Shown piece by piece: positions 1-46,442 of a DNA stretch of 64,000 nt. Within the stretch, counting starts at the first letter, position 1, and every line of letters starts with the position of its first letter. The notes beneath the pieces were generated by a model. That model was not told the DNA's origin, did no database searches, and saw nothing but the letters and a program-made list of their open reading frames with translations. Where the stretch lies: the NCBI GenBank assembly GCA_014762505.1, contig JABURS010000029.1, positions 60,178 to 124,177 of the forward strand, in the 5' to 3' direction. This stretch comes from Chromatiales bacterium. GTDB lineage: Bacteria > Pseudomonadota > Gammaproteobacteria > SpSt-1174. The translations under genes were made by a program, and so were the position numbers.

Positions 1-704
1 TAGGAGACGATCAACGTGTCCTTGTCGAACATGGCCGCCTGAAAACGCGAGTAGGGGCACATGTAGGTACAGACCTGCTCGCGCGCGAGGCCCGCCATGA
101 CGTAGGTGGTCGTCATGAGGAAGAAGGTCGTTGCATAGGCGGCAAACGGCGCCTGCCCGGTAAAGAAGGCAACGGCCAGTTCCGGGGCGTTGCCCCAGTA
201 CATGGTGAAACTGAAACCCGTCACGAAGGCGACGGCCAGCCAGAGGAGATGCGTGGCGCCGAGGCGGGCGATCTTCTCACCACCCCAGGGCTGTTTGGCC
301 AGGCGGATACGCGCCGGTCGTTCACCCTGGGTCAGCTTCTCGATGGCGATGAAGACATCGGTCCACAGGGTCTGAAAACAGAAATAGCCGCAGAAGACAC
401 GCCCGGCGATACCGGTGACGAAGAACAGCAGAAAGGCGGCGATCGCCAGCAGCCAGGCCAGCCAGAAGATGTCCTGGGGGTGAACAATCAGATCGAAGAG
501 GTAGAAGCGACGCCCGGGCAGATCCCAGAGCACGGCCTGGTCAGGCCCGACCGGCCTTTCCCAGCGCAGCCAGGGCAGCAGGAAGTAGACACCATAGGCC
601 AGGGCAAGAATGCCCCACTTGAGTCGCCGGAAGCGGCCCTTTACCGAACGCGGATAGATGGGAATGCGCTTGGCGTATAACTCGACCTGCTCTTCTGAAC
701 TCAT
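1..704 (-). CDS. ccoG: cbb3 oxidase accessory 4Fe-4S membrane protein CcoG/FixG, N-terminal part (gene continues past window start)
   Basis: Reverse-strand translation from ATG (rc of 702-704): MSSEEQVELYAKRIPIYPRSVKGRF... with TM segments and a CTYMCPY ferredoxin-type Cys motif; directly downstream of ccoNOQP. Not in the ORF track because it runs off the edge. Confidence 0.75.
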   Translation of the reverse strand, partial: MSSEEQVELYAKRIPIYPRSVKGRFRRLKWGILALAYGVYFLLPWLRWERPVGPDQAVLWDLPGRRFYLFDLIVHPQDIFWLAWLLAIAAFLLFFVTGIAGRVFCGYFCFQTLWTDVFIAIEKLTQGERPARIRLAKQPWGGEKIARLGATHLLWLAVAFVTGFSFTMYWGNAPELAVAFFTGQAPFAAYATTFFLMTTTYVMAGLAREQVCTYMCPYSRFQAAMFDKDTLIVS

Positions 705-784
705 CGCCTCGACCAGTTGAAGTGAGTGGTGGGCGCGGGAGGGAACGACGGCGCCCGCAGGCGCCGTCGTAGACTACCGTGTGC

Positions 785-1714
785 TTATTCGCCGCCCGAC
801 AGGCTGTACACGTAGGCGGTGAGCAGCTTGATCTCACCGTCGGAGAGACGACCTTCCCAGGCCGGCATGTGGCGCGAAATGCCGTTGGCGATGACATTGC
901 GCACCGCCGCATGCTTGGCCTCGTAACCTTCGGCGCCGTTGACATCGGCCACGGTCCAGATGGAATCGGTCAGGTTCGCCGCACCCACGGACTGCAGGCC
1001 GGTACCCGCTGCGGTATGGCAGTAGTAGCAACCGCCTTCCTCGCCCTGGAAGATCTTCTGACCCATGGCGACCTGCCCGGCATCACCTTCATGCCCGGAG
1101 AGGCTCAGGGCATAGGCGGTCACGGCATCCAGCTGCTCGTCGCTGAAGGTGGCGGCGAAGGCCGGCATGTAGCCCATGCGGCCCTGGCGCAGGGTTTCCT
1201 CGATCCTGGCGGTGCTGCCACCCCACAGCCAGGCATCGTCCACCAGGTTCGGGAACAGGCCGACAACACCCGTACCACCGGTACCATGGCAGGCGGCGCA
1301 GTTGTCACCGAACAGGCCCTTGGCATAGGAACGCATGAAGGCAGCCTTGTCCGGATCGGACAGGATCTCGTCATACGAGGCGCCGATGATCTGTTCCAGA
1401 TACTCGCGCTGCTTCACGGCGCCGTCCGAGAATTCCATGTCATAGGCGAGCTTGGCACGCGTATTCCAGTGCGAACTGACCGTTTCACCTGCATCGTTGG
1501 TGAAGGTGATGTTGTTGCCCACCCCCTTGGTGAAAGAGGTGCCTACCGGCCAGGCCGGATAGATGATCCAGTAAATGATTGCGAAAACAAAGGTCGCGTA
1601 AAACGCCCACACCCACCAGCGGGGAAGCGGGTTGTTGTACTCCTGCAGATCGCCGTCCCAGGCATGACCCGTCGTCTGCACGGCACCGGTTTGCTTATCA
1701 GTCGCGTTGCTCAT
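785..1714 (-). CDS. ccoP: cbb3-type cytochrome c oxidase subunit III (dihaem cytochrome c)
   Basis: 309 aa, N-terminal TM, two CxxCH (CAACHGTGG, CYYCH); overlaps the ccoQ stop. Confidence 0.9.
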   Translation of the reverse strand: MSNATDKQTGAVQTTGHAWDGDLQEYNNPLPRWWVWAFYATFVFAIIYWIIYPAWPVGTSFTKGVGNNITFTNDAGETVSSHWNTRAKLAYDMEFSDGAVKQREYLEQIIGASYDEILSDPDKAAFMRSYAKGLFGDNCAACHGTGGTGVVGLFPNLVDDAWLWGGSTARIEETLRQGRMGYMPAFAATFSDEQLDAVTAYALSLSGHEGDAGQVAMGQKIFQGEEGGCYYCHTAAGTGLQSVGAANLTDSIWTVADVNGAEGYEAKHAAVRNVIANGISRHMPAWEGRLSDGEIKLLTAYVYSLSGGE

Positions 1715-1922
1715 GATTGCTTTCCGCCTTCTTGTCTACGTCGGCACCTTCCTCGTCTTGCAGAGGAATGTACTTGTAACTTTCAAGTCGCTTCGATCGC
1801 CGCTTGCTGCTGTATACGTAGAGAAGAATCCCGACGTATGTGGTGAAGAAGATCACCAGCGCGACGATCTTGCTGTTACCCAGTTGGGTGATCCAGTTCC
1901 ACAGATCTTGCAACGTGCTCAC
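1698..1922 (-). CDS. ccoQ: cbb3 oxidase small subunit CcoQ
   Basis: 74 aa single-TM peptide between ccoO and ccoP. Confidence 0.8.
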   Translation of the reverse strand: MSTLQDLWNWITQLGNSKIVALVIFFTTYVGILLYVYSSKRRSKRLESYKYIPLQDEEGADVDKKAESNHEQRD

Positions 1923-1964
1923 CCCTCGAAATCAGGGCCGCCACGCAGGCGGCCCGGTTCGCGA

Positions 1965-2702
1965 TCAACGGAACTGGACGAAGTATTCCTCGTCGTACCG
2001 GCTGAAGTCGACCATGGTACCGAGCACCTGCAGGTAGGCGACCAGCGCCTCCATTTCGGTCACTCGACCGGGAATACCGTCATAGTTGCCCGACTGTGCC
2101 TGGGCCAGGAGATTGGCCTCGGCGCTGTTGATGTCGAGCAGCTTGGCGACATCTTCACCGAACTTCTCCACATTGGCCTGGTACTCCTCGTCGGTCTCCG
2201 AGTAGGGCACGCCGACGGCCTTCAGGGCACGCATGCGGCTGGCGATGTCGGAATAGGCCAGGTCGTTCTCCAGCAGCCACGGGTAGTTCGGCATGATGGA
2301 TTCCGGCACCACCGAACGCGGCGCGAGCAGATGCTGCACGTGCCATTCGTTGGAGTACTTGCCACCCACGCGGGCCAGGTCCGGACCGGTGCGCTTGGAG
2401 CCCCACTGGAACGGATGGTCGTACTGCGACTCGGCGGCCAGCGAATAGTGACCGTAACGCAGGTCTTCATCGCGGAACGGACGCACCATCTGCGAGTGGC
2501 AGGTGTAGCAGCCTTCACGGATGTAGATGTCGCGACCACGCTGCTCGAGCGGCGTGTACGGACGCACGCCCTCGACCTTTTCGATGGTCTCGTCGATGTA
2601 GAACAGCGGGACGATCTCGACCAGACCGCCAACGCTGATCGCGAGCATGGTCAGGACAATGAGCAGGCCCGCGTTCGTTTCGATACTTTCGTGCTTCATC
2701 AT
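1965..2702 (-). CDS. ccoO: cbb3-type cytochrome c oxidase subunit II (monohaem)
   Basis: 245 aa, CYTCH haem motif, TM anchor, classic CcoO N-terminus. Confidence 0.92.
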
Positions 2703-2720
2703 GGTCTTACAACTCCCGAA

Positions 2721-4175
2721 TTAAGCGTTGGCCATCTTGGCGGCGATCTTGGCTTCGATCGCGGCCTGCTCGCGCTTGGCAGCGCGCACGGTCATGTAGA
2801 AGTTGTACGCCATGATCACGGCACCGGTGAGGAAGAACATGCCACCGATGGCGCGGACCACGTACGGGCCGTGCAGGAAGGTCACGGATTCGACGAAGGT
2901 GTAGGCCAGGTTGCCGTACTCATCGAAGGCACGCAGCATCAGGCCCTGACCGATACCGGCAACCCACATCGCGGTGATGTAGAGCACGATACCGATAGTG
3001 GCCAGGAAGAAGTGCACGTAGATCAGCTTGATGCTGTAGATCTTCGTATCCCAGAGGCGCGGCACCATGTGGTACAGCGAGCCGATGGACACCATCGCCA
3101 CCCAGCCCAGCGCACCGGAATGCACATGGCCGACGGTCCAGTCGGTGTAGTGCGAGAGGGCGTTGACGCTCTTCAGTGACATCATCGGACCTTCGAAGGT
3201 CGACATGCCGTAGAACGACAGCGAGGTGATCAGGAACAGCATGATCGGGTCGGAGCGCAGCTTATCCCAGGCGCCCGAAAGGGTCATGATGCCGTTGATC
3301 ATGCCACCCCAGGACGGCAGCAGCAGCAGGATGGAGAAGGTCGCGGCCAGCGACGAGGTCCAGTCCGGCAGCGCGGTCCAGTGCAGGTGATGCGCACCCA
3401 CCCACATGTACAGGAAGATGATCGCCCAGAAGTGGATGATGGACAGGCGGTAGGAATACACCGGACGACCCGCCTGCTTGGGCACGAAGTAGTACATCAT
3501 GCCGAGGAAGGCCGCGGTCAGGAAGAAGCCCACCGCGTTATGGCCGTACCACCACTGGGTCATGGCATCCTGCACGCCCGAGAACAGGCTGTAGGATTCC
3601 AGGCTGAACATCGAGACCGGCACCGCCAGGTTGTTGAAGATGTGCAGCAGGGCGGTGGCCAGGATGAAGGCCAGGTAGAACCAGTTCGCCACGTAGATGT
3701 GCGGCTGGGAACGACGGCGCAGGGTCTGGACGTAGATCCAGAAGTAGACCACCCAGGTGACGGCAATCAGGATATCGATCGGCCAGATGAACTCGGCATA
3801 TTCACGGCCCTGGGAATAACCGGCCATGTAACCGATGATCCCGAGCAGCAGGGCGATGTTCCACCCCCAGAAGGTGAAGCCGGCCAGGGCGTCGCTGTAG
3901 AGGCGGGCCTGGGAGGTACGCTGCACCACATAATAAGAAGTGGCGAAGAGCGCGTTACCGCCGAAGCCGAAGATCACGAGGGTGGTATGCACCGGACGCA
4001 GGCGCCCGAAGGTGATCTCCGCGATGTCGAAGTTCAGGAACGGCCAGGCCAGCTCGCTGGCGATGTAAACCCCCGCTCCCATGCCCAAAACGGCCCAAAC
4101 AACGGCCATAATGGCGAATTTCTTGATGATTTCGTAATTATATTGGTCTGTCGATGTTACTGCCGAGTGCGCCAT
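2721..4175 (-). CDS. ccoN: cbb3-type cytochrome c oxidase subunit I
   Basis: Polytopic haem-copper oxidase subunit. The track ORF extends to 4235, but the likely start is [15 protein letters not shown] (ATG rc 4173-4175) with AAGGGG 6 nt upstream. Confidence 0.9.
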
Positions 4176-4329
4176 CGTGTGCCCCTTAAAGCCTGGTGAA
4201 ACGTCCAAAAGGCAAAAATTTAGCCTGCGAAGCATACAGAAAAATTTGCAAATGGCAAATTAAGGCCGAGCAGGACAGTGGGTTATAGGATGCCAGCCAG
4301 CATCCTACAACCCCGGGATGACGCCCGTA

Positions 4330-4343
4330 TTGAGGCAGATCAG
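4330..4343. promoter_or_regulatory. FNR/Anr-type box TTGAGgcagATCAG (8/10 to TTGAT-N4-ATCAA, TGA-N6-TCA core intact) upstream of ccoN
   Basis: On the ccoN (minus) strand a -10-like TAGGAT (4302-4307) starts 29.5 bp from the box centre, i.e. class-II (-41.5) geometry; cbb3 operons are typically Anr/FNR activated. Confidence 0.35.
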
Positions 4344-5269
4344 ATTTGCGCGAGTCGCTCGCTGATCACTGGCAGGAAGCGGTCGATAATGAGGAAGGCG
4401 AACAGCACCATCAGGTAGACGATTGAAAAGACGAAGGTTTTGATCGCATCGCGCGGGTCACGCGAGCGCAGCATGCGCACCGCATGGTGGATGAAGACCC
4501 CGCCGAGCAGCAGCGCACCGACCAGGTAGAGAACGCCGTTCTCCCCCATCAGGTAGGGCAGCAGGGTCACCAGCACCAGCAGGATGGTGTAGAACAGCAC
4601 GTGCCAGCGGGTGAATTCGTCCCCGTGGGTCACCGGCAGCATGGGGATGCCGACCTTGGCGTAATCCTCCTTGCGGTAGATGGCCAGGGCCCAGAAGTGC
4701 GGCGGGGTCCAGGTGAAGATGATCAGGAACAGTACCAGGGCGTAGGCATCGACCTGCCCGGTCACCGCGGTCCAGCCCAGCAGCGGTGGCGTGGCGCCGG
4801 CCGCACCGCCGATGACGATATTCTGCGGCGTGGCCCGCTTGAGGAACATGGTGTAGACGAAGGCGTAGCCCACCAGCGAGAGAAAGGTGAGCACGGCGGT
4901 GAGCATGTTGACCTGCAGCATCAGGATTGCCATGCCAATGGCGCCGATCAGGCCGGCAAAGGTCAGGCAGCGGCGCACGTCCAGGTGCCCGGTGGGCAGC
5001 GGACGGCGCTGGGTGCGGCGCATCACCCCGTCGACATGACGGTCCACCACGTGGTTGATGGCCGCCGCCGAACCCGCCACCAGCCCGATGCCCAGCGTGC
5101 CGAACAGCAGCGCGTTCCAGGGCATCGCCTCGGGGGAGGCCAGCAGCATGCCCACCCAGGCCGTGAAGAGCATCAGCGCGACCACCTTCGGCTTGCACAG
5201 CTCGAGATAGTCCCGCCAGTGGGTCCAGTGGCCGGAATGCAGATGCAGTGCACGGATCAGTGATGACAT
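4340..5269 (-). CDS. ctaB: protohaem IX farnesyltransferase (haem O synthase)
   Basis: UbiA-family polytopic protein. The track ORF is N-terminally extended into ctaA; the true start is MSSLIRALHLHSGHW (ATG rc 5267-5269). Confidence 0.9.
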   Translation of the reverse strand: MSSLIRALHLHSGHWTHWRDYLELCKPKVVALMLFTAWVGMLLASPEAMPWNALLFGTLGIGLVAGSAAAINHVVDRHVDGVMRRTQRRPLPTGHLDVRRCLTFAGLIGAIGMAILMLQVNMLTAVLTFLSLVGYAFVYTMFLKRATPQNIVIGGAAGATPPLLGWTAVTGQVDAYALVLFLIIFTWTPPHFWALAIYRKEDYAKVGIPMLPVTHGDEFTRWHVLFYTILLVLVTLLPYLMGENGVLYLVGALLLGGVFIHHAVRMLRSRDPRDAIKTFVFSIVYLMVLFAFLIIDRFLPVISERLAQI

Positions 5270-5273
5270 GGTT

Positions 5274-6308
5274 CTAACCTCGCTGTTCAAAGGACGAAGC
5301 CCCCGACCGCAGGATCGCGGCGAGCAGCGTGAGGAGCGACAGCAGCAGGATGGCCGCGACCGCGTTGTGCGCCACGGCCACCGACAGCGGCAGCTGGTAG
5401 ACGATGTTGGAAATCCCCAGCGTGACCTGCGCGCCCAGCACCAGCAGGACGACCAGGGCCGCGCCGCGCAGGCCGTCGCTACGGCGGCCGAAGAGCAGGC
5501 CAATCGCCAGGAGACCGAGGTAGAGCGCGGTGACCAGCGCCCCCAGTCGATGGGTGTAATGGATGGCAGTACGCGCAGGATGGTCCAGCACACCGAATTC
5601 GTAGTTCACGCCCAGGCCACGCCAGAGCACGAAGCCCTCACGAAAATCCATCTCGGGCCACCAGCGTGACTGACACTGGGGGAAGTCCGGGCAGGCCAGC
5701 GCCGCATAGTTGGAACTGGTCCAGCCGCCGAGCGCGATCTGCCCCACCAGGATCACCAGCCCCAGAGTCACCCAGGGCAGGAATCGCCGGTGCCCGTTGC
5801 GCGCGAGCAGCGGCGTTTCACGGCCGCCGATCGCCAGCCACCAGAGCAGGGAGAGCGTGGCGAAGCCACCCAGCAGATGCCCCATGACCACCACCGGCTT
5901 GAGCTGCAGGGTGACGGTCCACATGCCAAGCAGGGCCTGGAAGATCACCAGCCCCAGCAGCAGCAGCGGCAGCAGGACCGGTTGCCGGACGTGCTGGCGA
6001 TTCACCAGTGCCAGCACGGCCAGCCCCAGGATCAGCAGCCCCAGCGTGCCGGCGAAGTAGCGATGGACCATCTCCTTCCAGGCCTTGGGCGCCTCCACCG
6101 GACGCTCCGGGAAGGTGGCATTGGCGCGCGCCACCTCATGCTCGGCCTGCGGCACACCGAGGTGACCATAACAGCCAGGCCAGTCGGGACAACCCAGGCC
6201 GGCATCCGACAGCCGGGTGTAGGCCCCGAGGATCACCACCACTATGGCGAAGACCGTGGCGAACTGGGCGAGCCGGCGGAACAGCCGATGCAGACGGTCA
6301 CTAGCCAA
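5274..6308 (-). CDS. ctaA: haem A synthase (COX15/CtaA)
   Basis: 344 aa polytopic protein with the CPDWPGC and later CPDFPQC motifs typical of CtaA; precedes ctaB. Confidence 0.88.
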   Translation of the reverse strand: MASDRLHRLFRRLAQFATVFAIVVVILGAYTRLSDAGLGCPDWPGCYGHLGVPQAEHEVARANATFPERPVEAPKAWKEMVHRYFAGTLGLLILGLAVLALVNRQHVRQPVLLPLLLLGLVIFQALLGMWTVTLQLKPVVVMGHLLGGFATLSLLWWLAIGGRETPLLARNGHRRFLPWVTLGLVILVGQIALGGWTSSNYAALACPDFPQCQSRWWPEMDFREGFVLWRGLGVNYEFGVLDHPARTAIHYTHRLGALVTALYLGLLAIGLLFGRRSDGLRGAALVVLLVLGAQVTLGISNIVYQLPLSVAVAHNAVAAILLLSLLTLLAAILRSGASSFEQRG

Positions 6309-6903
6309 CTTTGGACACCTTCAGCAGACGTTTGAGATCCTTCATGAGGCCCTTGGCGGTCGCATTGTCGTCATAGCCGAGCACGATGTTGCCCATCGGA
6401 TCGACGAGATAGAGCTGCTGCGCCGGCAGCCCCGCCAGGCCGTCCTCGTCAGCGCCGAGTCTCGCCAGCGGCATGCCCGGGTGTTCCTGCAGGAGACGCT
6501 CGCCCGGGTGCGCATTCGGCGCGGCCTGGAGATAAAGCCGCTGGACGCGCGGGGCATCGCGCCCCAGCGCCAGGCGTGTCTGCCGGGCCTTGAACAGGGC
6601 CGCCTCGCAGGCCAGGTCGCAGGCCCCATCGGCATAGAACACCAGGGTCCAGTGTCCCTCCCAGTAATCGGCCGGCAGCACACTGCCGTTGCGGTCAACG
6701 GCCGGCAGACCTTCCACCGACACCAGCGGCTCGATCAGCCGGCCGTGGTTCGTGTGCGTCGGCGGCGCCCACTCCAGCACCATCATCAGCAGGTAGGCCA
6801 GCAGCAGGGGGCCGACGAAGGCGGCGATCACCCCCAGCAACAACCAGCGTGAACGCGTCACCGACACGCCTTCGCTTCTCAACACCTGTTCACTCATGTG
6901 CAT
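6301..6903 (-). CDS. membrane-anchored CxxxC (Sco/TlpA-like thioredoxin-fold?) protein of the aa3 oxidase assembly cluster
   Basis: 200 aa, one N-terminal TM helix, FYADGACDLAC motif; 8-nt overlap with ctaA and 14-nt overlap with surf1; occupies the slot of the uncharacterised gene between surf1 and ctaA in Pseudomonas-type clusters. Confidence 0.55.
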   Translation of the reverse strand: MHMSEQVLRSEGVSVTRSRWLLLGVIAAFVGPLLLAYLLMMVLEWAPPTHTNHGRLIEPLVSVEGLPAVDRNGSVLPADYWEGHWTLVFYADGACDLACEAALFKARQTRLALGRDAPRVQRLYLQAAPNAHPGERLLQEHPGMPLARLGADEDGLAGLPAQQLYLVDPMGNIVLGYDDNATAKGLMKDLKRLLKVSKVG

Positions 6904-7621
6904 CCTCTCGCTTGAGATTCACGACCACATAGATGACGACCAACGCCGCCGCCAGACCGAACCACTGCACTGCATAGGCAATGTGCTTGGCCGGCGTCAT
7001 GGGCACCACTTCCCAGTCGCGCAGATAGCCTGCGGGCGCCTCGGCCGACAGACGTATCGTCATCGGCAGCAGCGGCATATCGAGACGCTGCGCGAAGACA
7101 TCGAAATCCAGGCTCTGCACGATGCGCGGCCAGCCGGCAGCCGGGTCATCGACATCACCCAGGCTGTAGGCCTCGCCAAACGGGATGTAGATCCAGCCCT
7201 CTATCTCGACCGGCGCCCCGGTCACAGGGATATCCGGCAACACGTCGCGTCGCGCACCCATCGGCAGCCAGCCCCGGTTCACCAGCACCACCCGGCCATC
7301 GACGAGACGAAACGGCGTGAGCACCTCGAACCCCGCCTGACGATTGCGCACCTGGTTGTCGAGCAGGAATTGCCGCTCGGGGAGATACCGCCCGCGAAGG
7401 ACAACCCGGCGATAGCGCAAGGCATCGACATCTCCCGCAGAGAGCGCATCGGCATACAGGGACTGTCCCGCCCGGCTCGCCTCGAAACGCTCGAGCAATA
7501 CGCGCTTTTCCTCTGCGCGTCCGAGCTGCCAGAACCCCAGTGTCAGAAACAGGCCTAGCAACAGCATCACGGCAATACTCGGGAGCAGGCCAGGTGAGAA
7601 ACGGAACGGTCCAGGACGCAT
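6890..7621 (-). CDS. surf1: SURF1 family cytochrome oxidase assembly protein
   Basis: Two-TM topology with a periplasmic domain; likely start MRPGPFRF (track ORF starts 9 codons earlier at 7648). Confidence 0.8.
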   Translation of the reverse strand: MRPGPFRFSPGLLPSIAVMLLLGLFLTLGFWQLGRAEEKRVLLERFEASRAGQSLYADALSAGDVDALRYRRVVLRGRYLPERQFLLDNQVRNRQAGFEVLTPFRLVDGRVVLVNRGWLPMGARRDVLPDIPVTGAPVEIEGWIYIPFGEAYSLGDVDDPAAGWPRIVQSLDFDVFAQRLDMPLLPMTIRLSAEAPAGYLRDWEVVPMTPAKHIAYAVQWFGLAAALVVIYVVVNLKREDAHE

Positions 7622-7692
7622 GCCGCCGACGTCACAAGCCGCACACAACAGGCTGCGTTATACTTCTGCCTGCAATCCATCCGGAGCGTTCC

Positions 7693-7911
7693 ATGATCAT
7701 AAAAATCGCGATTCTGCTTTTGTTTGCGGTCATCCTCGGCAGCCTGGGTTCCGCATTGTTTTATCTGCTCAAGGACCAGGGGGATTCAAAACGCACCGCC
7801 CGGGCCCTGACCATACGCATCGCGGTCTCGATCGCCGCGTTTCTCCTGCTGCTCATCGGCTACTGGGCCGGCCTGATCGAGCCTCACAGCCCCTTCGCCC
7901 CGCCGCAGTAA
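7693..7911 (+). CDS. twin-transmembrane-helix small protein (DUF2909-like) embedded in the cox cluster, opposite orientation
   Basis: MIIKIAILLLFAVILGSLGSALFYLLKDQGDSKRTARALTIRIAVSIAAFLLLLIGYWAG...; two TM helices; ATG at 7693; the track ORF 7540 carries an implausible N-terminal extension. Confidence 0.6.
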   Translation: MIIKIAILLLFAVILGSLGSALFYLLKDQGDSKRTARALTIRIAVSIAAFLLLLIGYWAGLIEPHSPFAPPQ

Positions 7912-7922
7912 TCCGACCAGGG

Positions 7923-7948
7923 CAGCCCGGGGCGCATGCACGCCCCGG
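7923..7948. terminator. 10-bp GC hairpin (GCCCGGGGCG-catgca-CGCCCCGGGC) between the convergent small TM gene and coxC
   Basis: Perfect inverted repeat seen directly; no U-tract. Confidence 0.4.
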
Positions 7949-7958
7949 GCCGATCCCG

Positions 7959-8825
7959 CTACAGCCAGTAAACGAAGATAAACAGGCCGAGCCACACCAC
8001 GTCGACGAAGTGCCAGTACCAGGCTGCCGCCTCGAAGGCGAAGTGATTCTTCGATGTGAAATGGCCTTTCAGCACCCGGATCAGCATCACGGTCAGCATG
8101 ATGGCACCGATGGTCACGTGCAGACCGTGGAAGCCGGTGAGCATGAAGAAGGTAGAGCCGTAGATGCCCGAGCTCATCTTGAGATTGAGATCCGCATAGG
8201 CATGCATGTACTCATAGGCCTGGAAGCCCAGGAAGATCGCACCCAGCAACACGGTCAGCAGGAGCCCCAGCGCCAGCTGGCCGCGCTTGTCTTCCTTCAG
8301 CGCATGATGCGCCCAGGTGATGGTCGCACCCGAGGTGAGCAGGATGGCCGTATTGAGTGCCGGGATACCCCAGGCACCCATGATCTCGAACTGCCCGCCG
8401 ACCTCACCCGGACCGCCGGTCGGCCAGGCCGCCTCGAAGTTTGGCCAGAGCACGGCATTGGTCGACACGCCGTCGCCTTCGCCACCCAGCCACGGCACGG
8501 AATACTGCCGGGCGTAGAACAGCGCGCCGAAAAAGGCCGCGAAGAACATCACCTCCGAGAAGATGAACCAGAACATCCCCCAGCGGAAGCTGAGGTCCAC
8601 CTGCGCGTTGTAGGCGCCAGACTGGCTCTCCCTGATCACGGTGCCGAACCAGCCGAACATCATCACCAGCGTGATGACGACGCCCACCAGCATCAGCAAT
8701 TGGCCAAAATCCGCACCATTGAGCCAGGATGCAAAGCCCACCAGCAGGGTCGTGAGACCGACCGAGCCGACGATGGGCCAGTGGCTGCCATGCGGGATGT
8801 AATACTGCCCTTGTGCATGAGCCAT
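7959..8825 (-). CDS. coxC: aa3-type cytochrome c oxidase subunit III
   Basis: 288 aa, 7-TM subunit III pattern. Confidence 0.9.
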   Translation of the reverse strand: MAHAQGQYYIPHGSHWPIVGSVGLTTLLVGFASWLNGADFGQLLMLVGVVITLVMMFGWFGTVIRESQSGAYNAQVDLSFRWGMFWFIFSEVMFFAAFFGALFYARQYSVPWLGGEGDGVSTNAVLWPNFEAAWPTGGPGEVGGQFEIMGAWGIPALNTAILLTSGATITWAHHALKEDKRGQLALGLLLTVLLGAIFLGFQAYEYMHAYADLNLKMSSGIYGSTFFMLTGFHGLHVTIGAIMLTVMLIRVLKGHFTSKNHFAFEAAAWYWHFVDVVWLGLFIFVYWL

Positions 8826-8873
8826 GGTAAAACCCCCTTTGGTTGTTATCCCATCCGTTGCACGGATCCCGCC

Positions 8874-9419
8874 CTAGTCGTGCAGGGCAATCTTTTGATC
8901 CGTATCAAAAAACGTATATGAAAGGGTGATGGTGGTGACATGGGCCGGCAGCTTCGGGTTGATCACGAAGCTGACCGGCATGTCACGGCCCTCCCCTGCC
9001 TGAAACAGTTGCTGCGTAAAACAGAAACACTCGGTCTTGCTGAAATAGCGGGAGGCGGCATTGGGCGCCACGCTGGGAATGGCCTGGCCGGTGACATCCC
9101 TGTCCGTGAGATTACGGGCATGAAAATTCACCGTGTAGACCTTGCCGGGATGTACCTTCATCTTCGTCACTTCCGGCGCAAACTCCCAACGCAAACCCTG
9201 ATTGAGACTGGTCACGAATTCGACCACGATCTCGCGATCCGGATCGAAGGCATAACTCGCCACCACGGACTCATCGACCACGCCCGTCTTGCCGTTCAAC
9301 CCGGTGATCTCGCAGAAGACGTTATAAAGCGGCACCAGGGCAAAACCGAAACCGAACATCCCCAGCACGAAGATGCCGAGCTTGAACGGGGTTCGGTAGG
9401 TTGCGTAGCGCCCTTTCAT
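8874..9419 (-). CDS. ctaG: cytochrome c oxidase assembly protein Cox11/CtaG
   Basis: MKGRYATYRTPFKLGIFVLGMFGF...; CFCF copper motif; single TM. Confidence 0.88.
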   Translation of the reverse strand: MKGRYATYRTPFKLGIFVLGMFGFGFALVPLYNVFCEITGLNGKTGVVDESVVASYAFDPDREIVVEFVTSLNQGLRWEFAPEVTKMKVHPGKVYTVNFHARNLTDRDVTGQAIPSVAPNAASRYFSKTECFCFTQQLFQAGEGRDMPVSFVINPKLPAHVTTITLSYTFFDTDQKIALHD

Positions 9420-9429
9420 CACGCGCCCC

Positions 9430-9537
9430 TAACGAGTGCCCATGAGGATGAAAAATCCCACATAGAAGCCAATCGCAACCAGCGCGAGTATTGCCAGGGT
9501 GATACGGATGCGGTGTTGCTGTCGTGTATCCTGCATA
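9430..9537 (-). CDS. unannotated 35-codon single-TM ORF between coxA and ctaG (candidate small oxidase subunit)
   Basis: rc: ATG CAG GAT ... = MQDTRQQHRIRITLAILALVAIGFYVGFFILMGTR*; AGGAGG 4 nt upstream; stop about 7 nt before the ctaG start; below the 60-aa track cutoff. Confidence 0.35.
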
Positions 9538-9583
9538 TCGCCTCCTGTTGCCGGGCGGCCGCAACGACCGCCCGGCTGGTTCG

Positions 9584-11158
9584 CTACTTGATTTCAGGCG
9601 CCGTCGTGAAGCTGTGATAGGGCGGCGGGGAGGACAGCGTCCACTCCAGCCCATGCGCACCTTCCCATACCTGATCGGTAGCCTTTTCGCCGCCCCGTAT
9701 CGTCTGGAAGATCAGATAGACGAACAGCAGCTGGGCAAAGCCGAAGCCGAAGGCACCAATCGAGGCGATGGCGTTGAAGTCGGCGAACTGCAGCGCGTAA
9801 TCGGGAATACGCCGCGGCATGCCGGCCAGACCGACGAAATGCATCGGGAAGAAGGTCAGGTTGACGAAGATCGTCGACAGCCAGAAATGCCACTTGCCGA
9901 GCGTCTCGTTATACATGTGACCGGTCCACTTCGGCAGCCAGTAATACACGGCGGCAATGATGGAGAAGACCGCCCCCGGTACCAGCACGTAGTGGAAATG
10001 CGCCACCACGAAATAGGTGTCGTGATACTGGAAATCCACCGGCGCGATGGCGAGCATCAACCCCGAGAAACCGCCAATGGTGAACATGATGACGAAGCCC
10101 AGGGCGAAGAGCATGGGCGTCTCGAAGGTCATCGCCCCCTTCCACATGGTCGCCACCCAGTTGAACACCTTCACCCCGGTCGGCACCGCGATCATCATCG
10201 TGGTCAGCATGAAGAAGAGCTCACCGGCCAGCGGCATCCCCACCGTGAACATGTGGTGCGCCCACACGATGAAGGAGAGGAAGGCGATACTCGCCGTGGC
10301 ATAGACCATGGAGGCATAGCCAAACAGCGGCTTGCGGGCAAAGGTCGGGATGATGCTCGAGGCGATACCGAAGGCCGGCAGGATCAGGATGTACACCTCC
10401 GGATGCCCGAAGAACCAGAAGATGTGCTGGAACATCACCGGGTCACCACCACCGGCCGCACTGAAGAAGCTGGTACCGAAGTACTTGTCGGTGAGCAGCA
10501 TGGTAACCGCCCCCGCCAGCACCGGCATGGTGGCGATCAACAGATAGGCGGTGATCAGCCAGGTCCATACGAACAGGGGCATCTTCATCAGGTTCATGCC
10601 CGGTGCTCGCATGTTGAGGATGGTCGCGATCACGTTGATGGAACCCATGATCGACGAGATCCCCATCAGATGGATGGCGAAGATCACGAAGGGGAATGCA
10701 TCGCCGGTCTGCAGCATGAGCGGGGGATACATGGTCCAGCCACCCGCCGGGCCACCACCATCCATGAAGAGCGTGGACAGCAGCATGGCGAAGGCGAACG
10801 GCAGGATCCAGAAGCTCCAGTTGTTCATGCGCGGCAGGGCCATGTCGGTGGCCCCGACCATCATCGGGATGAGCCAGTTGGCCAACCCGGTAAAGGCCGG
10901 CATGACCACACCGAAGATCATCACCAGCGCATGCATGGTGGTCATGGAGTTGAAGAACTGCGGCTCGACCATCTGCAACCCGGGCTCGAACAGTTCGGCA
11001 CGGATCACCAGGGCCATCGCCCCGCCGATGAAGAACATCAGCAGCGCGAACATCAGGTACAGGCTGCCGATATCCTTGTGGTTGGTGGTGAACAGCCAGC
11101 GCTTGATGCCGCTCGGATGCTCTTCGTGGTGATGCGTTTCGGAAATCACAGCACTCAT
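9584..11158 (-). CDS. coxA: aa3-type cytochrome c oxidase subunit I
   Basis: 524 aa haem-copper oxidase subunit I (MSAVISETHHHEEHPSGIKRWLFTTNHKDIG...). Confidence 0.95.
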   Translation of the reverse strand: MSAVISETHHHEEHPSGIKRWLFTTNHKDIGSLYLMFALLMFFIGGAMALVIRAELFEPGLQMVEPQFFNSMTTMHALVMIFGVVMPAFTGLANWLIPMMVGATDMALPRMNNWSFWILPFAFAMLLSTLFMDGGGPAGGWTMYPPLMLQTGDAFPFVIFAIHLMGISSIMGSINVIATILNMRAPGMNLMKMPLFVWTWLITAYLLIATMPVLAGAVTMLLTDKYFGTSFFSAAGGGDPVMFQHIFWFFGHPEVYILILPAFGIASSIIPTFARKPLFGYASMVYATASIAFLSFIVWAHHMFTVGMPLAGELFFMLTTMMIAVPTGVKVFNWVATMWKGAMTFETPMLFALGFVIMFTIGGFSGLMLAIAPVDFQYHDTYFVVAHFHYVLVPGAVFSIIAAVYYWLPKWTGHMYNETLGKWHFWLSTIFVNLTFFPMHFVGLAGMPRRIPDYALQFADFNAIASIGAFGFGFAQLLFVYLIFQTIRGGEKATDQVWEGAHGLEWTLSSPPPYHSFTTAPEIK

Positions 11159-11180
11159 GATCAGATTCCTCCCGTCGCGC

Positions 11181-12308
11181 TCAGCGCGCCGCCTTGATAT
11201 CGGTGGGTTGGATCACGTCGCCGGTATCGTTACCGAAGGCGTTTCGCTGGTACGTGATCACAGCAGCCAGATCGACGTCGCTGAGTTGCGGGCCGAAGGC
11301 GGCCATCGCCGTGCCCGGTACCCCGTTCATGACGAGATCCACATGCCCCTTGATTTCCCCGGTGGCCACGGCACTGCCCTTGATCGCCGGGAACACGCTG
11401 CCCATGCCCTCGCCATTGGCCTGGTGACAGGCGGCGCAGTTGGTGTTGTAGATCTTCTCGCCGCGGGCCATGAGGTCGCTCTTGCCCCATTCCTTGTCTG
11501 AGGCCATCAGCTCGGCTTCACGCGCCGCCTTCTGCTCGGCCACCCAGTCGAGATACTCGTTCTCCTCCATCGCGACGACCACGATCGGCATGAAACCATG
11601 GTCCTTCCCGCACAGCTCGGCACACTGACCGCGATACACGCCCGGCTCATCGATGCGCGTCCACAGCTCGTTGACGAAACCCGGGATGGCATCTTTCTTC
11701 ATGGCCAGATCCGGCACCCAGAAGGCATGGATCACGTCGTTCGCCGTGACCAGGAAACGGATCTTCTTGTTGATCGGCACCACGATCGGGTTGTCCACGT
11801 CCAGCAGATAATGCTCGCCCTTATCGGCGCGGTTCTCGATCGCGGCACGCGGCGTGGCGAGATTGCTGAAGAAGCCGATGCCCTCGTCCATGTAGTCGTA
11901 GTGCCACTTCCACTGATAGCCGGTGACCTTGATGGTCATGTCGGCATTGCTCGTGTCTTCCATGGCGATCAGGGTCTTGGTGGCCGGAATGGCCATGCCT
12001 ACGAGGATCAGGAAGGGCACCAGGGTCCAGAGAATCTCCACCGTGGTGCTCTCGTGGAACTGGGCCGCCTGTACGCCCCTGGATTTGCGGTGCTTGACGA
12101 TGCTGTAGAACATCGCCCCGAAAACGACGATGCCGATGACAACGCAGATCCAGAAGATCAGCATGTGCAGGTCGTAGACGGTATTGCTGATCTCCGTCAC
12201 GCCCCGCGGCATGTTCACTTCCCAGTCCGCGAAGGCCCCTCCGGCTGACATGGCCAGGGCGATGCCTGACAACGCGGCCACTGCCGGTTTCAACTGCGCA
12301 TTCTTCAT
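11181..12308 (-). CDS. coxB: aa3-type cytochrome c oxidase subunit II with C-terminal cytochrome c domain
   Basis: CuA ligands (CAELCGKDHGFM), signal peptide and TMs, C-terminal CAACH haem domain. Confidence 0.93.
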   Translation of the reverse strand: MKNAQLKPAVAALSGIALAMSAGGAFADWEVNMPRGVTEISNTVYDLHMLIFWICVVIGIVVFGAMFYSIVKHRKSRGVQAAQFHESTTVEILWTLVPFLILVGMAIPATKTLIAMEDTSNADMTIKVTGYQWKWHYDYMDEGIGFFSNLATPRAAIENRADKGEHYLLDVDNPIVVPINKKIRFLVTANDVIHAFWVPDLAMKKDAIPGFVNELWTRIDEPGVYRGQCAELCGKDHGFMPIVVVAMEENEYLDWVAEQKAAREAELMASDKEWGKSDLMARGEKIYNTNCAACHQANGEGMGSVFPAIKGSAVATGEIKGHVDLVMNGVPGTAMAAFGPQLSDVDLAAVITYQRNAFGNDTGDVIQPTDIKAAR

Positions 12309-12779
12309 GCGTCCCTCCTAAGTGGTGGTTGAGTGGTGCCGTGGCGCCACTCGGTTTTGCCGAATCCTGTTGCGATCCGTTTGTTGTTATGTCGTTGTTC
12401 TTGTTTTGAGAGGACGCGCCCGCCAGCGGGCGCTCCCGTGCCCTGCTCGCCCGGTCAGCCCGCAGCCCAGCCGGCCATGGCACCACGGCAGGAAGGACGA
12501 TGGACGTGACACGGGTGTCGTCGCATGCAGATCGGCAGGGACGACAAACACCACCCACCATGGCGGATGGCGGCAAGACATAGGGTCAGGGCAAGGACGG
12601 GATGCCGGACGACTGGCATGAAAGACGGGGAGGCCGGCAACAGATGGCCGGGGGTGACAGGTGCTGAACACCGGAGGACTTTGCACAACAGCACCCCGAG
12701 CCGGTGATGAAACCGGCGCCAAAGGGCCTGATTGTCTTGGTGGTTCGCTACCATGCGCCTCCGGGTCCCCTCCGTGATT

Positions 12780-13075
12780 ATTTTGTTATGGGAATCCCCT
12801 CCAGTTACGAGGCATGCTAGCTCAGCGATTCTGGCAGAACAATATCTTTGATTAATTGAGCGTATTAGTATTTTTATATATTTCTTTGCGCTCAAAAACT
12901 ATTTTATGCGGGTCAAAAGTTTTATTTCTCATAAATATCAATGAATTAAACATATTCATTGATCAACGGAATTGTTGATAACCAACCTTTATAAAATTCC
13001 TGAATAATACTTTTTTATAATTTCTATGAGTGAATTTGGGCAAATCATCCATTGACGGGCATTTTTGCCAATTTT
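12780..13075. other. AT-rich (~25% GC) 300-bp non-coding island upstream of coxB and downstream of bioC
   Basis: Sharp compositional drop in a ~67% GC genome; contains an IHF-consensus tATCAAtgaaTTA (12927-12939), a TTGATCAA palindrome and a promoter-like module shared with the pilM promoter. Confidence 0.6.
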
Positions 13076-41275: not shown

Positions 41276-41352
<77 letters not shown>

Positions 41353-41383
41353 CTCCCTTCCCGGCCCGCCATCCGACGGGCAC

Positions 41384-41410
41384 AAAAAAGGCGCCACAGG
41401 CGCCTTTTTT
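41384..41410. terminator. bidirectional intrinsic terminator AAAAAA-GGCGCC-aca-GGCGCC-TTTTTT
   Basis: A-tract and T-tract flank the hairpin; lies between the tRNA (+) and gpmI (-). Confidence 0.65.
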
Positions 41411-41430
41411 GTGCCATGAACGCAGGCGGA

Positions 41431-44454: not shown

Positions 44455-44694
44455 TCAGGCCTTGTCCTTGTCTTCTTTCTTGACCTCGGCGTCGATCACC
44501 CGGCCCTGCTTGTCCTGGTCCTCGACCTTGGCCTTCGCGGTGTCGTCCTCGCCGTCCTTCACGGACTTCTTGAAGCTCTTGATCGCCCCACCGAGATCGC
44601 TGCCGATGTTGCGCAGGCGCTTGGTGCCGAACAACAGCAGCACGATGGCCAGGATGAGCAGCAGCGACCAGGGACTGATTCCACCAAAACCCAT
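44455..44694 (-). CDS. tatA: twin-arginine translocase subunit TatA
   Basis: [35 protein letters not shown]... Confidence 0.9.
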
Positions 44695-44753
44695 AACAGT
44701 AATCTCCTAAGAAAATGCGTCACACAGCGCGGATGACGATATGGCGCGCCTGT

Positions 44754-45077
44754 CTATTCCCCGCGCTGCGCCTTTTCCTCCAGGCCGGAGAGGCCGAAGC
44801 GCCGGTCCAGCTCGGCCAGCACCTCGCGCGGCCCGAGGCCCTGCTGGGCCAGCAGCACCAGGGTATGAAACCACAGATCCGCGACCTCATAAACGATCTT
44901 GTCGGGCTGCCCGTCCTTGGCGGCCATGACCGTCTCGGTGGCCTCCTCGCCGACCTTCTTGAGGATGGCGTCCAGCCCCTTGGCGTAGAGCCTTGCCACG
45001 TAGGAGCTGTCGGGATCGGCCTGCTTGCGGTCTTCGAGCACCGCGGCCAGGCGCTCGAGGATCTGCGTCTCGTTCAT
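44754..45077 (-). CDS. hisE: phosphoribosyl-ATP pyrophosphatase
   Basis: 107 aa HisE. Confidence 0.9.
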
Positions 45078-45460
45078 CCGTAGATCTCTTTCGGGTCCTT
45101 GAGCACGGGCTCGACCTCGACCCAGCGCCCGTCCTCGAGGCGGTGATAAAAACAGTTGTGCCTGCCTGTATGACAGGCGATACCGCCCAGCTGTTCAACC
45201 TCGAGCAGGATGACATCGCGGTCGCAGTCCAGGCGGATCTCGTGGACCTTCTGCACGTGACCGGAGGATTCGCCCTTGTGCCAGAGGCGCCCGCGGGAGC
45301 GCGACCAGTACACGGCCTCGCCCAGCTCGGCGGTGCGGGCCAGGGCCTCGCGATTCATCCAGGCGAACATCAGCACCTTGCCGGTGGCGGCCTCCTGGGC
45401 AATGACCGGCACCAGGCCGTCGGCGGTCCAGGTGATTTGATCGAGCCAGCTGTCGGACAT
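45074..45460 (-). CDS. hisI: phosphoribosyl-AMP cyclohydrolase
   Basis: 128 aa HisI. Confidence 0.9.
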
Positions 45461-45517
45461 GCTTGATACGCGATAGATAAGGGGTCGGACGGGTCAGTCT
45501 AGCACAGCCCACTGGGC

Positions 45518-45672
45518 CTAGCAGGCCGTTGAAAAACGGCCTGCTAAGGCAAGCCACGGATAGCTTGCGCGAACATCAATCACGCCAAGTGATTGATGTT
45601 CGGAGGCCGTCGCGAATTCACTTCGCGACGTGCCGAGTTGAAAAAAGGCAGGAAAGCCCTTTTTCAATATCC
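45518..45672. repeat. array of 4-5 consecutive perfect hairpins in the hisF-hisI intercistronic region
   Basis: 12-bp stem TAGCAGGCCGTT-gaaa-AACGGCCTGCTA (45518-45545); GCAAGC-N8-GCTTGC (45549-45568); 13-bp stem GAACATCAATCAC-gccaa-GTGATTGATGTTC (45570-45600); 9-bp stem CGTCGCGAA-ttcac-TTCGCGACG (45607-45629); imperfect TTGAAAAAAGGC-agga-AAGCCCTTTTTCAA (45636-45672). Confidence 0.6.
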
Positions 45673-45674
45673 TG

Positions 45675-46442
<768 letters not shown>

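Follow-up and report, generated by a model that had tools for sequence, protein, structure and literature searches.

The IS5 group of insertion sequences, as described in ISfinder, duplicates a 4-bp target of the form YTAR. REP elements are of a different kind, being single palindromes of 20-40 nt that have no target duplication and are spread by RAYT Y1 transposases. CTAG has been reported as an IS5 duplication (PMC10379815). Type II MITEs, among them BrickBuilt, MITE293 and MITE700 of Porphyromonas gingivalis, with ISPg1, ISPg3, ISPg4 and ISPg9, and ATR of Neisseria, with ISNme1, are short, non-coding elements that have the terminal inverted repeats (TIRs) of IS5-family insertion sequences and an unrelated interior, and their mobilisation in trans is presumed (PMC4596501). 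Correia elements have a site for IHF and can change how transcripts are processed, and a small repeat with a terminator-like hairpin has also been reported (both PMC10969869). In Geobacter uraniireducens, the MITE called Chunjie lies within an operon, and its RNA is predicted to fold at about -98 to -130 kcal/mol (PMC3184786).

Here we analyse the gap between hisF and hisI in a bacterial his-tat operon, in which an earlier note, made from the letters of the DNA, had described a dense array of hairpins. The operon lies in a stretch of 64 kb, and by the window we mean the whole of that stretch. Our reading, to which we assign a probability of roughly 0.88, is that the array represents a single copy of a transposable element that is non-autonomous, a 153-bp IS5-type MITE with a 4-bp duplication; it is built on the observed boundaries and duplication, an empty site, a family of relatives, an IS5-type partner and structural covariation. 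As an IS5-related MITE the element would be of a known kind, and the family itself seems to be uncatalogued.

Gene context and hairpin cluster

The gene context previously assigned to the locus is confirmed, with IGPD, GATase, His_biosynth (twice), PRA-CH, PRA-PH, TatA, TatB, TatC and iPGM all encoded on one strand. The hisF-hisI gap is 214 bp long in the window, and it is framed as follows.

45675..46442, minus strand: hisF, 255 aa, His_biosynth; its reading frame is unaltered by the insert
45074..45460, minus strand: hisI, 128 aa, PRA-CH
45461..45517, minus strand: native hisF-hisI spacer and hisI leader, present in empty and filled alleles and outside the element

Compared with dinucleotide shuffles of the 215-nt gap, the his-sense (minus) strand folds at -106.4 kcal/mol versus -64.5 +/- 4.6 (z = -9.2), none of 200 shuffles folding as well as the native gap, and the plus-strand fold gives z = -8.2. 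The presence of five adjacent stem-loops, as described in the earlier note, is borne out by this fold, with the hairpins confined to 45519-45667; of the extent first given for the array, 45461-45675, the part from 45461 to 45517 is the native hisI leader and has to be taken away. The five stems are 12, 8, 14, 9 (with an extension of 3) and 12 bp long. An inverted-repeat search recovered arms at 45519-45530/45535-45546 (12 bp), 45570-45583/45589-45602 (14 bp, perfect), 45608-45616/45622-45630 (9 bp, perfect) and 45638-45649/45656-45667 (12 bp, 92%), and fold prediction added the 8-bp hairpin at 45549-45568. The hairpin density is above background, as had been stated: when perfect inverted repeats with a stem of at least 9 and a loop of 3-8 are counted over the whole 64 kb, 3 of the 17 fall within 112 bp here. 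Lettered from the hisF side, the hairpins are the following.

45638..45667, minus strand: hairpin A (the fifth in the earlier note), TIR A paired with its internal copy, UUGAAAAAGGGC-UUUCCU-GCCUUUUUUCAA
45605..45634, minus strand: hairpin B, a perfect 9-bp stem (45608-45616/45622-45630) with a GGC/GCC extension
45570..45602, minus strand: hairpin C, a perfect 14-bp stem
45549..45568, minus strand: hairpin D, a stem of 8 bp whose conserved loop contains TCC
45519..45546, minus strand: hairpin E, TIR B paired with its internal copy, a 12-bp stem whose loop is UUUC in the mRNA and GAAA in the plus strand

The GAAA loop singled out before is therefore right for the plus strand and wrong for the his mRNA, where the loop is UUUC. 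The statement that none of the hairpins has a U-tract does not hold, as the hairpin adjoining hisF reads AAAAAGGGC-UUUCCU-GCCUUUUUU on the mRNA, with a U6 run in its 3' arm. In the window copy hairpin D has one G-U pair on the mRNA strand.

Elsewhere in the window, some 230 bp at 12830-13060 are very AT-rich, against a genomic G+C content of 66%, and hold a 10-bp palindrome, ATCAATGAAT...ATTCATTGAT. Positions 1-13000 have a G+C content of 56-68% per kb, mostly about 60%, which is below that of the rest of the window.

Boundaries of the element and the empty site

The exact HisI of the window is encoded in nine places (L001-L009), which are 97.7-99.4% identical to the window and are therefore regarded as the same species. 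The 214-bp gap is found in L002 and L003, and L005, L006 and L008 start inside the gap; in L001, L004, L007 and L009 hisF and hisI are 57 bp apart. When filled and empty alleles are aligned (alignment A1), the difference is exactly 157 bp, with CTAG at both sides in the filled alleles and one CTAG in the empty ones. With junctions marked by a slash, the empty allele reads ...GTCTCTAG/GCCC..., its CTAG being single (TCTCTAG/GCCC), and the filled allele reads ...GTCTCTAG/CAGGATATTG...CGGCCTG/CTAG/GCCC.... The alignment yields an element with these parts.

45522..45674, minus strand: MITE body, 153 bp, CAGG...CCTG, boundaries from the filled/empty alignment
45675..45678: target-site duplication, copy 1 (CTAG), of which 45675-45677 are the hisF TAG stop on the minus strand
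45518..45521: target-site duplication, copy 2 (CTAG)
45652..45674, minus strand: TIR A, 5'-CAGGATATTGAAAAAGGGCTTTC, found by pattern match
45522..45544, plus strand: TIR B, 5'-CAGGCCGTTGAAAAACGGCCTGC, reading inward, a motif also present at the ends of family copies

The 'forward' orientation of the family corresponds to the his-sense (minus) strand. The ends are imperfect, of about 23 nt (CAGGnnnTTGAAAAAnGG), and the element is of the type CAGG...TTGAAAAA; in inverted orientation the two ends read CTAGCAGGataTTGAAAAAgGG and CTAGCAGGccgTTGAAAAAcGG and agree at 16 fixed positions. The sequence CTAGCAGGNNNTTGAAAAA occurs on opposite strands at 45518-45536 and 45660-45678, that is, in 2 matches in the window versus 0.13 expected by chance. 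The element has no coding capacity, only chance ORFs crossing its 153 bp, a length within the roughly 50-500 bp of MITEs, and hisF is unaltered because the duplicated CTAG restores its TAG stop. The earlier note had listed, as one possibility, a MITE remnant with CTAGCA-containing ends; we retain the MITE and drop the remnant, since the element is intact, with both TIRs, the duplication and an exact empty site.

The structure of the locus suggests how the insertion may have come about. An IS5-family transposase acting in trans would have recognised both ends, and the element would have been inserted after a staggered 4-bp cut at a YTAR site, namely the CTAG that holds the hisF stop. Duplication of CTAG would have regenerated the stop and left hisF intact, and the native 57-nt hisI leader would have been shifted 157 bp downstream.

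The three alleles that start inside the gap come from independent SRA assemblies (L005, L006 and L008), all of which break at one and the same base inside the element, their position 1 being window position 45633. This shared break point lies directly after a '...TTTTTCAACTCG' module common to many family copies; that three assemblies break at one base suggests a repeated or polymorphic module in these samples.

The family across genomes

One genome per species (596 Gb on each of 2 strands) was scanned for the end consensus TAGCAGGNNNTTGAAAAANGGC, in which 18 bases are fixed. The end motif occurs at at least 120 loci in many phyla, versus about 17 expected by chance by our own arithmetic. Among the matches listed, 22 loci are from one Sedimenticola MAG and several from other MAGs, and further loci belong to Gammaproteobacteria, Desulfobacterota, Myxococcota, Planctomycetota, Chloroflexota, Nitrospirota and more. 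An inverted partner end lies 125-170 bp off in most of the listed loci and about 1500-1535 bp off in those from Bradyrhizobium, Mesorhizobium, Rhizobium and Hoeflea. Among the listed loci, the 4-bp flanks agree on both sides in 31 copies of 120-260 bp (CTAG 12, TTAG 10, CTAA 8 and TTAA 1). The TTAG...TTAG and CTAA...CTAA pairs are non-palindromic, so the duplication is a true 4-bp YTAR duplication; a TA duplication inside a CTAG target, of the IS630-like type, is ruled out by these same flank pairs.

An nhmmer profile built from ten close relatives was run on the fetched loci and the window. It finds some 50 full-length copies in other genomes among the fetched loci, from Gammaproteobacteria to Planctomycetota, and the window element is its best match (E = 9.5e-46). 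The closest copy among the loci listed (L110:2875-3034), 92.5% identical, is in another genome, at an unrelated locus and with a TTAG duplication. Pattern, blastn-short and nhmmer searches of the 64-kb window and the contigs that overlap it gave one copy only and none besides it. A 20-mer internal to the element recovered no further copies from JGI metagenomes, two matches that share just 21 nt being taken as chance, and the end motif has 0 matches in viral contigs. The end sequence was not found in the open-access papers searched.

Shorter and more complex arrangements also occur. 'Solo' palindromes of 37-50 bp, flanked by YTAR, are present in L027 (about 560-600), L077, L026:7138-7188 and L111; they consist of two terminal repeats back to back and nothing else, and are minimal versions of the element. 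Related elements lie in tandem or nested in one intergenic region in L110 (2753-2863 by 2878-3030) and in the Sedimenticola loci L014, L043 and L129.

In GC-rich family loci YTAR sites are scarce (about 29 loci contain 387 of them). Of the 31 clean copies, 10 have a duplication whose TAR terminates an ORF of at least 150 codons, versus 14% of all YTAR sites, which serve as a rough control. Given the YTAR target preference, a stop codon is thus a natural place for such an element to land, and this accounts for the harmless entry into an operon.

IS5-family partners

The loci with a distant partner end contain 1.5-kb elements that have the same ends and the CTAG duplication and encode a protein of 363-371 aa with DUF772 and DDE_Tnp_1. 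Both Pfam domains score above their cut-offs, and the protein reaches 260 bits against the NCBIfam model NF033581, 'IS5 family transposase', for which the cut-off is 140; the 1.5-kb element is annotated 'IS5 family transposase' in 86 records on rhizobial plasmids. In the loci listed, autonomous partners were found mainly in rhizobia, together with one partial copy in a Pseudomonadales MAG. The 64-kb window has no transposase homologue.

TIR A agrees with the end of the 1.5-kb IS5-family element in L037, CAGGCTGTTGAAAAAGGGCC, at 17 of the first 20 nt of that end. The interior of the window element is unlike the interior of the 1.5-kb IS copies, and the link between the two is by the ends and the duplication alone. 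With ends of IS5 type and a target of IS5 type, the window element is therefore classed as a MITE with IS5-type ends. In the 1.5-kb elements a second conserved ORF of 138-157 aa lies downstream of the transposase (L037:2967-3383; L045:1661-2134, minus strand), and it has no Pfam or NCBIfam match.

Conserved structure and covariation

All of the approximately 50 copies in the fetched loci fold into an identical five-hairpin layout, at -63 to -106 kcal/mol, in which each TIR pairs with its own internal inverted copy and three palindromes lie between. Two alignments were used for covariation, a MAFFT alignment of 30 copies (A3) and an alignment of a 10-genome subfamily (A4). In A3, 94% of cells are paired versus 34-46% with partners slid by 1-3 columns, and compensatory changes occur at 13 of 26 pairs, scores that 0 of 500 shuffles reach; in A4, 16 of 52 pairs, spread over all five hairpins, are compensatory. 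These covariation figures overstate independence, given that the copies share descent and themselves served to derive the structure; even so, the alignments display the pattern clearly, with stems that vary in sequence from genome to genome and remain paired. Hairpin by hairpin, A is conserved in the family with compensatory changes, B has them at 6 of 10 pairs in A4, C has compensatory pairs in the relatives' alignments, D has them at 6 of 7 pairs in the 30 copies, and E has 97% of cells paired in the 30 copies. The earlier note had reckoned with a single-copy sequence that lacks covariation in relatives; single copy it is within the 64 kb, and family members elsewhere covary strongly.

Because some 50 copies share the layout with compensatory changes, the five hairpins are the family's own anatomy, and they did not evolve for his regulation. 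The structure of the family is unusually well conserved across phyla. G-U pairs make up 3.6% and 4.9% of pairs on the two strands in 51 copies, a rarity that would fit palindromes preserved as DNA, or in both strands, better than an RNA read from one strand. In 39 of these 51 copies, which are not independent, the fold of the reverse strand is slightly the better one. Strand asymmetry as a sign of selection at the RNA level was dropped on the ground of this non-independence; the pairs are mostly Watson-Crick on both strands.

On the minus strand, the 5' arm and loop of hairpin C read cATCAAtcacTTG, which agrees with the IHF consensus WATCAANNNNTTR at 12 of 13 positions. This IHF-like motif lies at 45586-45598 of the window, at about family position 80, in the central hairpin. 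Of 51 copies, which share ancestry, 30 have a TCAANNNNTTR core at a constant position in forward orientation, versus 3 in reverse. We regard the motif in the central hairpin as a lead, that is, as a candidate IHF site.

Consequences for the his-tat operon

A promoter scan of the hisF-hisI gap gave no promoter-like site, and TTGAAA in the terminal repeat, considered by eye as a -35 box, is followed by no acceptable -10. With no promoter in the gap and with hisIE-tatABC-gpmI downstream on the same strand, the element should be largely read through. Such transcription would leave five stable stem-loops in the mRNA, with at most partial termination at hairpin A. REP elements protect upstream RNA from 3' exonucleases, and by analogy the stems may shield the upstream hisBHAF RNA.

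On the mRNA strand hairpin A has the layout A5-GGGC-loop-GCCU-U6, with a core of four G/C pairs and the U6 run. In layout it resembles a weak bidirectional terminator, with a core modelled at -6.6 kcal/mol in the window and -9.3 in a family-consensus copy versus -13.0 for the hairpin between gpmI and a tRNA gene. A consensus terminator scan found nothing in the gap; as it also misses the terminator-like hairpin at 41379-41415, its silence on hairpin A is uninformative.

The hairpin at 41379-41415 is a perfect one of 17 bp, GGCACAAAAAAGGCGCC-ACA-GGCGCCTTTTTTGTGCC, at -30 kcal/mol. It sits between the end of gpmI (minus strand) and the tRNA gene (plus strand; 41276-41349), is likely a bidirectional terminator, and probably marks the end of the his-tat-gpmI unit.

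Alternative explanations

The other origins that have been proposed for the array can be set against these results. A palindrome cluster of the REP/BIME type, spread by a RAYT (Y1) transposase, would also place several different, co-transcribed palindromes in an intra-operon gap; however, the 153 bp act and move as one unit that has TIRs, a YTAR duplication of 4 bp and an exact empty site, the end sequences are those of IS5-family DDE insertion sequences, and no single hairpin recurs at another place in the window, all of which makes a REP/BIME origin, though raised in the earlier note, extremely improbable. We consider it hardly less improbable that the his-tat operon evolved a locus-specific structured RNA here, be it a processing module, an attenuator or an ncRNA. 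The strong folding (z = -9.2) and the covariation among related sequences are what such an RNA would lead one to expect, but the sequence is absent from conspecific strains, about 98-99% identical, that have an identical HisI, and its covarying relatives lie in unrelated loci of unrelated genomes. Moreover, the stems are almost all Watson-Crick on both strands (3.6-4.9% G-U), as in DNA palindromes, and there is no Rfam match: at the gathering score Rfam returns one tRNA only for the whole window and nothing for the relatives in 12 loci, and a permissive search of 45000-46100 gave noise only, with E-values near 1-10. The RNase processing module and the locus-specific ncRNA, both offered previously, are abandoned on these grounds. 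A similarly low probability attaches to the 157 bp being an ancestral, non-mobile spacer that some strains have deleted by slippage between chance CTAG repeats. Palindromes with short direct repeats on either side are indeed prone to deletion, and filled alleles are on more haplotypes than empty ones: over the 838 bp adjoining the site (44680-45517) the four empty alleles are one haplotype, identical to the filled L002 and L003, and the filled alleles comprise at least five haplotypes, with mosaic wider flanks (L001-L009). Against an ancestral spacer, homologues of the sequence that share its ends and have YTAR flanks are found at dozens of unrelated sites, so it is a mobile element, however the polymorphism arose. 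With the empty alleles of one haplotype and the filled ones of at least five, precise loss of the MITE may be as plausible as its recent gain at hisF-hisI.

Two further proposals concern what the MITE may do rather than what it is. That it has been co-opted is an addition to the MITE explanation and no alternative to it: hairpin A would serve as a leaky terminator, or the stems as exonuclease barriers or RNase sites, so that hisBHAF is uncoupled from hisIE-tatABC-gpmI. The layout of hairpin A is that of a bidirectional terminator like the one after gpmI (41379-41415), as RNA the insert as a whole is very stable, several haplotypes retain the filled allele, and Correia, REP/BIME and SPRITE elements are reported to act in this way (review, PMC10969869). 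On the other hand, hairpin A has a weak G+C core (-6.6 versus -13.0 kcal/mol for the gpmI hairpin), strong termination would be costly with hisIE and tatABC downstream of a gap that has no promoter-like site, and the coexistence of empty alleles in the same species makes the element dispensable; we thus regard co-option as possible and on balance doubtful. Less likely again is that the five-hairpin core is under selection in its own right, beyond recognition by the transposase, with the family being either a Correia-like 'regulatory cassette' found in environmental bacteria or one that transposes via folded single-stranded DNA. The basis for this proposal is the layout, the compensatory changes, the IHF-like motif and the loops, which are kept from Gammaproteobacteria to Planctomycetota. 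Were the family a cassette, it would deliver a ready-made module, comprising a weak bidirectional terminator, an IHF site and RNA stabilisers, to stop-codon YTAR sites in operons; a need for folded single-stranded DNA in transposition would be unusual for a DDE transposase.

Discussion

If the array is an IS5-type MITE, as we conclude, then for annotation purposes a structured-RNA candidate becomes a mobile-element insertion with exact boundaries, and the locus offers a natural example of a MITE that harmlessly enters an operon essential for biosynthesis and export. YTAR targets are infrequent in GC-rich genomes, and many coincide with stop codons, which the target duplication restores. The filled and empty alleles within one species constitute a natural experiment on five hairpins in a polycistronic mRNA. 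The family is widespread, structurally conserved and apparently without an Rfam entry; a family that is both widespread and structurally conserved may be expected to give rise to false 'novel ncRNA' calls until it is catalogued.

Several described systems share features with the window element. REP/BIME sequences of enterobacteria and pseudomonads are likewise transcribed intergenic palindrome clusters within operons, but the window array forms a single composite unit that has terminal repeats and a duplication, and it does not belong with them. Hairpin A has an A-tract, G+C stem and U-tract similar to those of the small terminator-hairpin repeat of PMC10969869, whereas sequence and host are unrelated; compared with that repeat, the terminator activity of hairpin A is predicted to be weak. 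The Chunjie MITE is alike in its insertion into an operon without destroying it, and differs in its 9-bp direct repeats, 21-bp ends, length of 178-235 bp and transposase lineage, the 9-bp direct repeats ruling out that it is of the same family.

The Correia elements (CREE/NEMIS) of Neisseria are also MITEs of about 100-160 bp that are often co-transcribed and form stable RNA hairpins, and their IHF site has a possible counterpart in the window's 12/13 match to the IHF consensus in the central hairpin, a candidate by sequence. They differ in having a TA duplication and unrelated 26-nt ends, and in that they fold mainly through pairing of their two ends with each other, whereas the window ends pair locally; membership of the Correia family is excluded by the 4-bp YTAR duplication and the different end sequence.

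With E. coli IS5 and the IS5 group the window family shares the 4-bp CTAG/YTAR duplication, and its partners carry DUF772 and DDE_Tnp_1 and pass NF033581; in contrast to IS5, the window element is 153 bp long and encodes nothing, and the IS5 end sequence is different. Like the type II MITEs, the window element has IS5-type ends and an interior unrelated to the insertion sequence, its ends being CAGGnnGTTGAAAAA as against their GAGACCTTTGCA. Unlike those MITEs, the window family has a clean 4-bp YTAR duplication and five conserved palindromes, and it extends over many phyla.
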